The notes under the pieces: generated by a model
Told to the model about the DNA's origin: nothing
Database searches by the model: none
The model's input: the letters and a program-made list of their open reading frames with translations, nothing else
In this document: positions 5,005 through 6,971 of the stretch, one piece after another
How positions within the stretch are numbered: position 1 is the first letter of the stretch
Layout of the letters: each line of letters opens with the position of its first letter
Translations under genes and position numbers: made by a program
Assembly (NCBI RefSeq): GCF_003018255.1
Contig: NZ_CP027440.1
DNA from: Escherichia coli
Lineage (GTDB): Bacteria; Pseudomonadota; Gammaproteobacteria; Enterobacterales; Enterobacteriaceae
DNA length: 64,000 bases
Reading direction: 5' to 3' (one strand)

Positions 5005-5883
5005 ATGAAATATTCCTTAGGGCCGGTGCTATGGTACTGGCCAAAAGAGACGCTGGAAGACTTTTATCAGCAGGCCGCCGCCAGCAGCGCAGACGTGATT
5101 TATCTTGGTGAAGCGGTCTGTAGCAAACGCCGGGCAACCAAAGTTGGCGACTGGCTGGAGATGGCAAAATCGCTCGCCGGAAGTGGCAAGCAGATTGTGC
5201 TCTCCACGCTGGCGCTGGTGCAGGCGTCCTCCGAACTTGGCGAACTGAAACGTTATGTTGAGAACGGTGAGTTTCTGATTGAAGCCAGCGATCTCGGCGT
5301 GGTGAATATGTGCGCTGAACGCAAACTGCCGTTCGTCGCCGGGCACGCGCTGAACTGCTACAACGCGGTGACACTGAAAATATTGCTCAAACAGGGCATG
5401 ATGCGCTGGTGTATGCCGGTGGAGCTTTCCCGCGACTGGCTGGTGAATCTGCTTAATCAGTGCGATGAGCTGGGCATTCGCAACCAGTTTGAAGTGGAAG
5501 TCCTGAGCTACGGTCATCTGCCGCTGGCCTACTCCGCCCGCTGCTTTACCGCGCGTTCGGAAGACCGCCCGAAAGATGAGTGTGAAACCTGCTGCATTAA
5601 GTATCCGAACGGGCGCAACGTGCTATCGCAGGAAAACCAACAAGTGTTTGTACTCAATGGCATTCAGACCATGAGCGGCTACGTTTACAACCTCGGTAAC
5701 GAGCTGGCATCCATGCAGGGGCTGGTCGATGTGGTCCGCCTGTCACCGCAGGGTACTGACACTTTCGCGATACTCGACGCCTTCCGCGCCAATGAAAATG
5801 GCGCTGCACCACTGCCGTTGACGGCAAACAGCGATTGTAACGGCTACTGGCGGCGGCTGGCCGGGCTGGAGCTGCAAGCCTAA
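5005..5883 (+). CDS. ubiV: Peptidase U32-family protein UbiV (YhbV)
   Basis: Track ORF 4987..5883 trimmed to ATG 5005 (MKYSLGPVLWYWPKE...); C-terminal Cys cluster (CETCCIKYPNG). Confidence 0.93.
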   Translation: MKYSLGPVLWYWPKETLEDFYQQAAASSADVIYLGEAVCSKRRATKVGDWLEMAKSLAGSGKQIVLSTLALVQASSELGELKRYVENGEFLIEASDLGVVNMCAERKLPFVAGHALNCYNAVTLKILLKQGMMRWCMPVELSRDWLVNLLNQCDELGIRNQFEVEVLSYGHLPLAYSARCFTARSEDRPKDECETCCIKYPNGRNVLSQENQQVFVLNGIQTMSGYVYNLGNELASMQGLVDVVRLSPQGTDTFAILDAFRANENGAAPLPLTANSDCNGYWRRLAGLELQA

Positions 5884-5963
5884 GTAAATAGCTCACTTTG
5901 TTAACAACTTTAACTACTCTTTAATGCAGTATTAAAGATTAATCAGTAACAAAGTGAGCTGTT

Positions 5964-6971
5964 ATGACTGATAAAACCATTGCGTTTTCGCTACTCGATC
6001 TGGCCCCCATTCCCGAAGGCTCTTCAGCGCGGGAAGCGTTCTCCCACTCTCTCGACCTCGCCCGTCTGGCTGAAAAGCGCGGCTATCATCGCTACTGGCT
6101 GGCGGAACACCACAATATGACCGGCATTGCCAGTGCTGCAACATCAGTTTTGATTGGCTATCTGGCGGCGAATACCACTACGCTGCATCTGGGGTCTGGC
6201 GGCGTGATGTTGCCTAACCACTCACCATTGGTGATCGCCGAACAGTTCGGCACGCTTAATACGCTCTATCCGGGGCGAATCGATTTGGGGCTGGGTCGTG
6301 CGCCGGGTAGTGACCAGCGAACCATGATGGCACTACGTCGTCATATGAGCGGTGATATTGATAATTTCCCCCGCGATGTCGCGGAGCTGGTGGACTGGTT
6401 TGACGCCCGCGATCCCAATCCGCATGTGCGCCCGGTACCAGGCTATGGCGAGAAAATCCCCGTGTGGTTGTTAGGCTCCAGCCTTTACAGCGCGCAACTG
6501 GCGGCGCAGCTTGGTCTGCCGTTTGCGTTTGCCTCACACTTCGCGCCGGATATGTTGTTCCAGGCGCTGCATCTTTATCGCAGCAACTTCAAACCGTCGG
6601 CACGACTGGAAAAACCATACGCGATGGTGTGCATCAATATTATCGCTGCCGACAGCAACCGCGACGCTGAATTTCTGTTTACCTCAATGCAGCAAGCCTT
6701 TGTGAAACTACGCCGTGGCGAAACCGGACAACTACCGCCACCGATTCAAAATATGGATCAGTTCTGGTCACCGTCTGAGCAGTATGGCGTGCAGCAGGCG
6801 CTGAGTATGTCGTTGGTAGGTGATAAAGCGAAAGTGCGTCATGGCTTGCAGTCGATCCTGCGCGAAACCGACGCCGATGAGATTATGGTTAACGGGCAGA
6901 TTTTCGATCACCAGGCACGCCTGCATTCGTTTGAACTGGCGATGGATGTGAAGGAAGAGTTGTTGGGATAG
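5964..6971 (+). CDS. yhbW: Luciferase-like (flavin-dependent) monooxygenase YhbW
   Basis: Track ORF, 335 aa, [19 protein letters not shown]... Confidence 0.92.

Follow-up and report, generated by a model that had tools for sequence, protein, structure and literature searches.

We propose that one conserved sequence between ubiV and yhbW of Escherichia coli may perform two jobs, i.e., as an activator-site/-35 block of the yhbW promoter when it acts as DNA, and as an anti-Shine-Dalgarno sequence when it is carried on RNA derived from the upstream ubiUV operon. In this reading, to which we assign a probability of roughly 0.35, the two transcripts would be told apart by their start site, and the YhbW monooxygenase would be made from its own stress-induced mRNA alone. 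The inverted repeat to which this sequence belongs is real, old and constrained, with both arms retained in about 17 enterobacterial genera.

Geometry of the inverted repeat in the ubiV-yhbW spacer

The window, i.e., the whole 64-kb stretch of E. coli DNA that was analysed, contains ubiV (yhbV; 5005-5883, + strand, stop codon TAA at 5881-5883), the last gene of ubiUV, followed after a spacer of 80 bp by yhbW (5964-6971, + strand), coding for a luciferase-like (flavin-dependent) monooxygenase (PF00296). Both genes were placed with the list of open reading frames and the K-12 annotation, which for ubiV covers an identical region. This annotation corroborates the gene identities given in an earlier note on this DNA and shows the gene order ubiU, ubiV and yhbW on the + strand, then mtr and deaD on the opposite strand. 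The 14-bp perfect inverted repeat described in the same note was also confirmed, as AGCTCACTTTGTTA (5890-5903) is the perfect reverse complement of TAACAAAGTGAGCT (5947-5960). Its placement just past the ubiV stop and 3 nt before the yhbW ATG agrees with the coordinates, since the left-arm core begins 6 nt past the stop codon and the right-arm core ends 3 nt short of the ATG (5964). The repeat even extends to 17 positions (5887-5903 and 5947-5963) with 94% complementarity and one T.G pair; in this extended form, the stem begins 3 nt past the ubiV stop codon and the right arm directly adjoins the yhbW ATG. Within the window, the 14-mer is found at the two arms only, with a chance expectation of 0.42 matches at two or fewer mismatches.

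The right arm (+ strand) makes up most of the short yhbW 5' UTR and includes the Shine-Dalgarno (SD) region AAGTGAG (5952-5958), located 5 nt from the ATG. The left arm (+ strand) is, as RNA, complementary to this SD region and, as DNA, a block just 5' of the yhbW core promoter. Between the arms, the earlier note had seen an AT-rich spacer of about 43 nt. The length of 43 nt holds, but this segment is not featureless, as it contains a strongly conserved motif, TTTAATGCAGTATTAAA. An inner inverted repeat (5915-5925 and 5931-5941, + strand) forms the hairpin tip and overlaps a -10-like hexamer (5927-5932).

Conservation within E. coli and across genera

The element is single-copy and was found in 5423 of 5426 complete E. 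coli genomes. Of 5424 genomes, 5411 share an identical 30-mer over the left arm, and of 5419 genomes, 5381 do so over the right arm. The polymorphisms found in the E. coli genomes sampled, at 5885, 5887, 5918, 5939 and 5945, all fall outside the 14-nt arms, these being too few sites for significance. The window is E. coli DNA of a strain other than K-12; its spacer differs from that of K-12 in a single loop nucleotide directly preceding the right arm (5945), where the window has an A, and K-12 and most E. coli have a G; 77 of the 5423 genomes match the 80-nt spacer of the window at 99% identity or more. A dispersed repeat (REP/BIME, ERIC or MITE) was rejected, as each of 5423 E. coli genomes has the element at a single place, and the REP and ERIC copies present at the locus are separate insertions beside the repeat.

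The upstream regions of yhbW from about 24 taxa were obtained from a genome scan, which contributed at least 11 useful enterobacterial loci, from exact-protein look-ups, and from metagenome data scanned with a primer published for K. pneumoniae. Both arms, (A/G)GCTCACTTTGTTAAC and TAACAAAGTGAGC, are kept in 12 named genera (Escherichia, Salmonella, Citrobacter, Superficieibacter, Enterobacter, Klebsiella, Cronobacter, Franconibacter, Atlantibacter, Entomohabitans, Buttiauxella and Pluralibacter), while degenerate copies were found in Mangrovibacter, 'Klebsiella' sp. BIGb0407 and Tenebrionibacter. The left-arm sequence GCTCACTTTGTTAAC is nearly invariant among 17 taxa. The right-arm core AAAGTGAG is kept in Tenebrionibacter and also precedes the yhbW ATG in Providencia, Brenneria and Erwinia; in these three genera the left arm was not seen, and the best complementary match amounts to 8 nt.

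The distances within the spacer fall into fixed and variable ones. A CAnTAT hexamer follows the start of the left arm at 36 nt in 17 of the 19 taxa and at 35 nt in the remaining two, and its variants (CAATAT, CACTAT and CATTAT) all retain A as the second and T as the sixth letter. From the end of the SD core AAGTGAG to the ATG there are 5 nt in 19 of 20 taxa. On the other hand, the distance from the end of the -10-like hexamer to the SD ranges from 19 to 93 nt depending on the genus, and the 10-15 nt from the left arm to the TTTAATGCAGTAT motif are freely variable. The arms are separated by 43-45 nt in Escherichia, Salmonella and Citrobacter, 67 nt in Buttiauxella, 92 nt in Atlantibacter, and 114-126 nt in Enterobacter, Cronobacter, Franconibacter and Entomohabitans. 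The fixed spacings on either side of a variable gap divide the region into two units, a promoter-like block made of the left arm and the hexamer, and a translation-initiation block made of the right arm and the ATG, which are, as judged from these alignments, joined by a leader of variable length.

The yhbW promoter and a candidate activator site

The yhbW gene is a member of the MarA/SoxS/Rob/RamA regulons (PMC4310594, PMC6561319). The YhbW protein of E. coli, described as part of the SoxRS regulon, was the most strongly vanillin-induced protein (77-fold; PMC6561319), and yhbW is co-expressed with fpr, nfsA and nfsB (PMC11062982). For K. pneumoniae, purified RamA has been shown to bind a yhbW promoter fragment and to activate it 6.9-fold in vitro (PMC4310594). 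Direct activation of yhbW by a regulator of the MarA/SoxS/Rob/RamA type is thus found in the literature data, by EMSA and in vitro transcription with RamA.

We rebuilt the 261-bp fragment used in these RamA assays from the published primers. In it, the left arm occupies 42-56, the hexamer CATTAT 78-83 and the right arm 162-174, with the ATG at 179. Because only 41 bp precede the left arm in this fragment, a promoter whose activator site is located at the -35 or further upstream cannot have its start before the arm, and the RamA-dependent mRNA therefore lacks an intact left arm. Considering this geometry and the conserved -10-like hexamer, the yhbW promoter very probably fires from inside the loop. 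In the window, the predicted -10 hexamer is CAGTAT (5927-5932, + strand), which follows the CAnTAT pattern seen across genera, and its position would place the mRNA start at 5939-5940 (+ strand). An alternative hexamer, TTTAAT (5920-5925), lies 16 bp after TTGTTA, and its start would also fall inside the loop. A start inside the loop is independent of the marbox assignment discussed below. No consensus sigma-70 promoter was called by the scan of 5400-6400; the -10-like hexamer was missed because it has no -35 match. A mirror-image promoter on the antisense strand was considered and rejected, since the right arm lies 6 nt nearer the centre and the mirrored hexamer, TTAAAG, is without the key A.

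In class II marbox promoters, a forward site overlaps a poor -35 element and is centred near -41 (PMC12052159, PMC8811837, PMC10268841), and weak -35 elements are typical of them (PMC10268841); the micF promoter, for example, has its class II RamA site at about -41 (PMC8811837). The sites bound by MarA-type proteins are asymmetric and can face either way (PMC12052159). At yhbW, the sequence ATAGCTCACTTTGTTAACAA (5888-5907, + strand) is a candidate site of this class for MarA/SoxS/Rob/RamA, in forward orientation over the -35 position. It lies 19 bp 5' of the -10-like hexamer, with its centre at about -41.5 from the predicted start near 5939. Its match to the classical consensus AYnGCACnnWnnRYYAAAYn is 11 of 14 specified positions, which taken alone is at the level of chance, and its match to the 15-mer gcannwwntgnnaaa (PMC12052159) is 7 of 10 positions. 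The window holds 127 marbox matches of the quality of ATAGCTCACTTTGTTAACAA, against 128 expected, and we therefore rejected the consensus match as standalone evidence. Based on its position, its orientation, its conservation and the known regulators of yhbW, 5888-5907 is nevertheless most likely a class II marbox-type site over the -35. The site at 5888-5907 appears neither in a published marbox screen, which allowed two or fewer mismatches, nor in the Salmonella ChIP-seq list of the main text of PMC10268841. In the available portions of the published MarA screen, MarA ChIP-seq, Salmonella ChIP/cappable-seq, Term-seq and SMRT-Cappable-seq data, the locus is not listed for transcription start sites, 3' ends or operons.

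RNA folding of the spacer

The RNA folding that the earlier note had put forward as a check revealed a significant stem on the + strand, where the region forms a single long hairpin with interruptions (-28.7 kcal/mol, z = -4.5; equalled by 0 of 200 shuffles). The - strand RNA reached -26.9 kcal/mol (z = -3.6). When the fold was extended to a read-through RNA covering 5850-5999, the long stem was kept and the SD region was fully paired (z = -3.6 in E. coli), and the stem was also kept in the corresponding read-through folds of Salmonella (z = -4.5), K. pneumoniae (z = -6.0) and Buttiauxella (z = -6.8). The predicted own transcript of yhbW, starting at 5939, showed no unusual structure (-11.3 kcal/mol, z = +0.5), with AAGUGAG unpaired. 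As the stem is present in the read-through folds and absent from the fold of the own transcript, it is a property of RNA entering from ubiV. The suggestion that the stem sequesters the ribosome-binding site of yhbW agrees with the predicted read-through fold, in which AAGUGAG (5952-5958) is fully paired, and the related idea of a translational gate against ubiUV read-through is the reading also favoured here, since the predicted stem would affect RNA derived from ubiUV.

The other RNA role envisaged for the stem, as a terminator or attenuator, was not borne out. No intrinsic terminator was called in 5400-6400, the stem being followed by GUUAUGAC rather than by a U-tract, and no species has a U-tract after the stem. 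A search of the region against Rfam 15 with a permissive E-value gave a microRNA model as the best match, with 23 bits against a threshold of 56, and six related loci gave zero Rfam matches. An RNA thermometer was rejected, since a fold of -28.7 kcal/mol is too stable.

Evolutionary evidence for pairing of the arms

In the arm alignment of 19 taxa, 85.4% of the cells are paired, compared with 33-49% when the partner columns are slid. Changes on both sides affect three pairs, a number reached by 121 of 500 shuffles, and covariation is uninformative because the arms barely vary. Thus, of the proposal that the arms would be conserved and co-varying, the conservation holds very strongly, whereas covariation was not detected beyond shuffled alignments. 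Mangrovibacter shows two apparent double changes, i.e., on both sides of two pairs. Among the departures from Watson-Crick pairing in the 13-bp core, 12 cells have a G.U pair on the + strand, one has A.C, which corresponds to G.U on the - strand, and 16 have other mismatches. The asymmetry between G.U and A.C is suggestive of pairing in + strand RNA over a strand-neutral role as DNA. It is confounded by SD and promoter constraint and by shared ancestry, because a transition yielding A.C would for the most part have to hit a G within the SD or a T within the promoter block, and because the taxa are not independent.

Variants and insertions at the locus

One E. coli isolate, 602 (NZ_OW968111.1, locus L002, 2002-2082, equivalent to 5888-5963 of the window), carries a perfect 81-bp palindrome with 40-nt arms and 1 nt between them, whose right half exactly complements the usual left half. 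The -10-like hexamer of this isolate becomes CAGCAT and its leader is 6 nt longer, and an IS621 (IS110-family) copy lies directly downstream of its yhbW (L002, 1-835). This palindrome bears the signature of a template-switch correction of a quasi-palindrome; it occurs in one of 5423 genomes and could be an assembly artefact.

In E. albertii and a substantial minority of E. coli genomes (L101, 270-474; L007, 2700-3000; L002, 2083-2211), the ubiV stop and the left arm are separated, at about 5889/5890 of the window, by an inserted ERIC (IRU) element of some 127 bp; in two samples of evenly spaced E. coli rows, it was present in about 2 of 12 and about 7 of 30. Salmonella has REP-like palindromes at the same spot. 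These ERIC and REP insertions never split the left arm from the -10 block. The Tenebrionibacter group has a gene resembling the ccdA antitoxin on the opposite strand, inserted between ubiV and yhbW (L098/L099, 1550-1798); here a degenerate left arm, TCTCGCTTTGATAAC, remains next to yhbW and is able to form 9 bp with the SD region.

A longer form of the leader, in which the -10-like hexamer and the right arm are set apart by a conserved and structured segment of about 70 nt, was found in Klebsiella, Enterobacter spp., Cronobacter, Franconibacter, Atlantibacter and Entomohabitans (L105, a K. pneumoniae-type contig, L003, L008, L087, L088, L091 and L093); Escherichia, Salmonella and Citrobacter lack this segment. 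Its outer helices are CAGC/GCUG and UUUYC/GRAAG, its inner hairpin is variable, and the stretch GACCUUCAAUCUGAUGAC is invariant. It gave no match to an Rfam family, and a mobile element was rejected, since E. coli genomes contain no copy. It is a possible regulatory leader of yhbW. The leader of Mangrovibacter yixingensis (L009, about 2925-2975) contains a GC-rich hairpin, GGGCAGATG...CATCTGCCC, with a run of seven T a few bases on, which looks like an attenuator and was not called by the terminator scan. In Erwinia endophytica and Brenneria roseae (L011 and L012, about 2840-2900), GC-rich hairpins with T-rich tails follow the ubiV stop and the left arm is absent; these hairpins fail the criteria of the terminator scan by a 10-nt loop or by having only 4 T. 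This contrast, which is confounded with phylogeny, would fit a terminator and an anti-SD arm being alternative ways of separating ubiV from yhbW.

Alternative explanations for the repeat

The conservation of the arms as sequences could reflect independent constraints, which argues against gating. In such a case, the left arm would be a promoter site and the right arm a ribosome-binding site, and their complementarity would be a relic of an old template switch with no selected function as RNA. The covariation, which is no better than in shuffles, the persistence of AAAGTGAG in Providencia, Brenneria and Erwinia without a left arm, and the template switching seen at the locus, with the perfect 81-bp palindrome of isolate 602, would all be in line with this explanation. 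We consider it unlikely all the same, as the left arm is invariant even at positions where the degenerate marbox consensus is free, one-sided changes mainly leave wobble-compatible pairs on the + strand (12 versus 1), Mangrovibacter changed both sides at two pairs, and the pairing outlasted a change of 70 nt in loop size. The shared sequence of the arms, their strict conservation, which suits protein recognition, and the ability of MarA-type proteins to bind in either orientation (PMC12052159) could also point to twin sites, both bound by a monomeric AraC-type activator (MarA/SoxS/Rob/RamA) in opposite orientations, with the upstream copy activating and the downstream copy (at about +8 to +27) acting as a brake or roadblock. 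This is quite improbable, since the position of the right arm is set by the ATG and not by the promoter (19 to 93 nt from the -10), its reverse complement fits the marbox worse than the left arm does and is not among the matches with three or fewer mismatches, and its core persists in taxa without the left arm.

The stem could instead be an element of the 3' end of the ubiUV mRNA, i.e., a stabiliser against exonucleases, a processing site for RNase III or a weak terminator. A stable stem does begin 3 nt past the ubiV stop, the spacer holds no canonical terminator, yhbUV was treated as the operon in Myers 2013 (PMC3688515), and Erwinia and Brenneria, without the left arm, have visible GC-rich hairpins with T-runs after ubiV. 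However, the stem is AU-rich and lacks a U-tract after it in any species, the hairpins of Erwinia and Brenneria were not called by the terminator scan, and the accessible part of a Term-seq data set contains no 3' end at the locus. Such an element would also leave unexplained the coincidence of the right arm with the SD region and its constant spacing from the ATG, and we regard it as rather improbable. The earlier note had further suggested an operator for a dimeric regulator, i.e., a repressor or activator contacting both arms. Apart from the dyad symmetry itself, nothing favours this proposal, and it does not fit the gap between the arms, which varies from 43 to about 126 nt among genera with neither a fixed spacing of half-sites nor a conserved helical phase, nor the fact that neither arm is itself palindromic. 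A palindromic operator is thus very improbable.

Proposed mechanism for transcript-specific translation of yhbW

In the reading that we prefer, with one sequence used as DNA and as RNA, the 80-bp spacer contains the signals for yhbW expression, two of which are connected by the repeat. The left arm as DNA would be the activator-site/-35 block on which MarA/SoxS/Rob act (in Klebsiella, RamA), with a constant spacing to CAnTAT, and the right arm would be the SD region of yhbW, fixed at 5 nt from the ATG. The own, stress-induced mRNA would start in the loop, at about 5939, without the left arm and with a free ribosome-binding site. Because the left arm is locked to the -10-like hexamer of this promoter, the own mRNA most likely never forms the stem. 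Read-through RNA from the Fnr-activated, anaerobic ubiUV operon would carry both arms, and its 17-bp stem would bury the SD and reach the edge of the AUG, so that YhbW, an O2-using monooxygenase, would stay untranslated from it. Alternatively, YhbW may be translated from this RNA only if the stem, 3 nt away from the ubiV stop, is opened by a ribosome that terminates there. Since the stem begins this close to the stop codon, such a ribosome would open its outer part, and in most genera translational coupling rather than a full block is therefore possible. Coupling is excluded in Salmonella, E. albertii and the E. coli bearing an ERIC, because the stop codon there lies more than 100 nt from the stem; in these, a block alone is possible.

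We put the full gating, in which read-through RNA alone forms the stem and yhbW translation is thereby blocked or coupled, at slightly less than an even chance. What is established comprises the repeat and its conservation, the spacings, both constant and variable, the predicted folds, the reported RamA binding and activation, and the geometric bound on where a RamA-dependent start can lie; the exact activator site and transcription start, the occurrence of read-through and the lowering of translation by the stem are inferred. The ubiUV operon is activated by Fnr under anaerobiosis (PMC10470549). The FNR-activated operon was given as yhbUV, without yhbW, in Myers 2013 (PMC3688515), which may mean that little RNA reaches yhbW.

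If this mechanism holds, two co-oriented units located 80 bp apart, with no terminator between them and with opposite oxygen logic, would be kept from cross-talk by an insulator written into the promoter itself. The opposite logic lies in ubiUV being anaerobic and Fnr-dependent, and in yhbW being inducible by oxidative and xenobiotic stress and encoding an O2-using enzyme. Such an arrangement could be a general form of insulation for promoters nested at the ends of operons, and it would give a concrete handle on the regulation of yhbW, whose protein is among the strongest responders to vanillin and to mar/sox/rob/ramA. For annotation, the 'intergenic hairpin' would be a promoter plus a ribosome-binding site rather than a terminator. 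If the mechanism is false, the spacer would be an ordinary promoter/RBS region with an old palindrome.

Comparison with known systems

The predicted yhbW promoter shares its regulators in the literature with class II marbox promoters such as that of micF. Like the micF-type sites, the yhbW candidate site is asymmetric and in forward orientation over a poor -35, and its predicted centre at about -41.5 is close to that of micF at about -41 (PMC8811837). The yhbW site differs in being a weak match (11/14, or 3 mismatches to the 15-mer), and its start is predicted. It also differs from the described marbox promoters in having a reverse-complement copy in the 5' UTR.

The palindrome of isolate 602 resembles another known phenomenon. 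Quasipalindromes are reportedly hotspots of template-switch mutation, as in the Ripley model and in the thyA and lacZ reporters of E. coli from the Lovett laboratory. In both cases an imperfect palindrome would be made perfect by copying one arm from the other. Unlike the functional systems compared here, template switching is a mutational side-effect of the repeat and not its function.

In translational coupling hairpins, e.g., those of the RNA phage MS2, a downstream ribosome-binding site is hidden because it base-pairs with sequence from the end of the upstream open reading frame. The yhbW stem, 3 nt past the ubiV stop and with its left arm within about 10 nt of the stop in most genera, is comparable, as its outer pairs would be opened by a ribosome terminating at ubiV, which would free the SD. 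In contrast to the coupling hairpins, REP or ERIC elements put the stop more than 100 nt from the stem in Salmonella, E. albertii and many E. coli. Because these elements separate the stop from the stem, coupling cannot be a conserved role there.

The kind of mechanism proposed here is already known from insertion sequences. Davis, Simons and Kleckner reportedly described in 1985 a fold-back inhibition of read-through transcripts in IS10/Tn10, and a similar protection exists in IS50. In IS10 and yhbW alike, the downstream arm of an inverted repeat lies over the ribosome-binding site of the gene; at yhbW, 5947-5963 contains AAGTGAG, which is fully paired in the folds. IS10 has its own promoter between the arms and its own mRNA without the upstream arm, as predicted likewise for yhbW, and outside transcripts carrying both arms are poorly translated, as we propose for yhbW. 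The two differ in that yhbW encodes a chromosomal enzyme of a stress regulon instead of a transposase, with the functional steps being predicted here, in that the outside transcription at yhbW would come from a defined neighbour operon, ubiUV, and in that the upstream arm of yhbW appears to double as an activator site. If the proposed mechanism is correct, the ubiV-yhbW repeat would thus be a conserved, chromosomal counterpart of the fold-back protection of insertion sequences.
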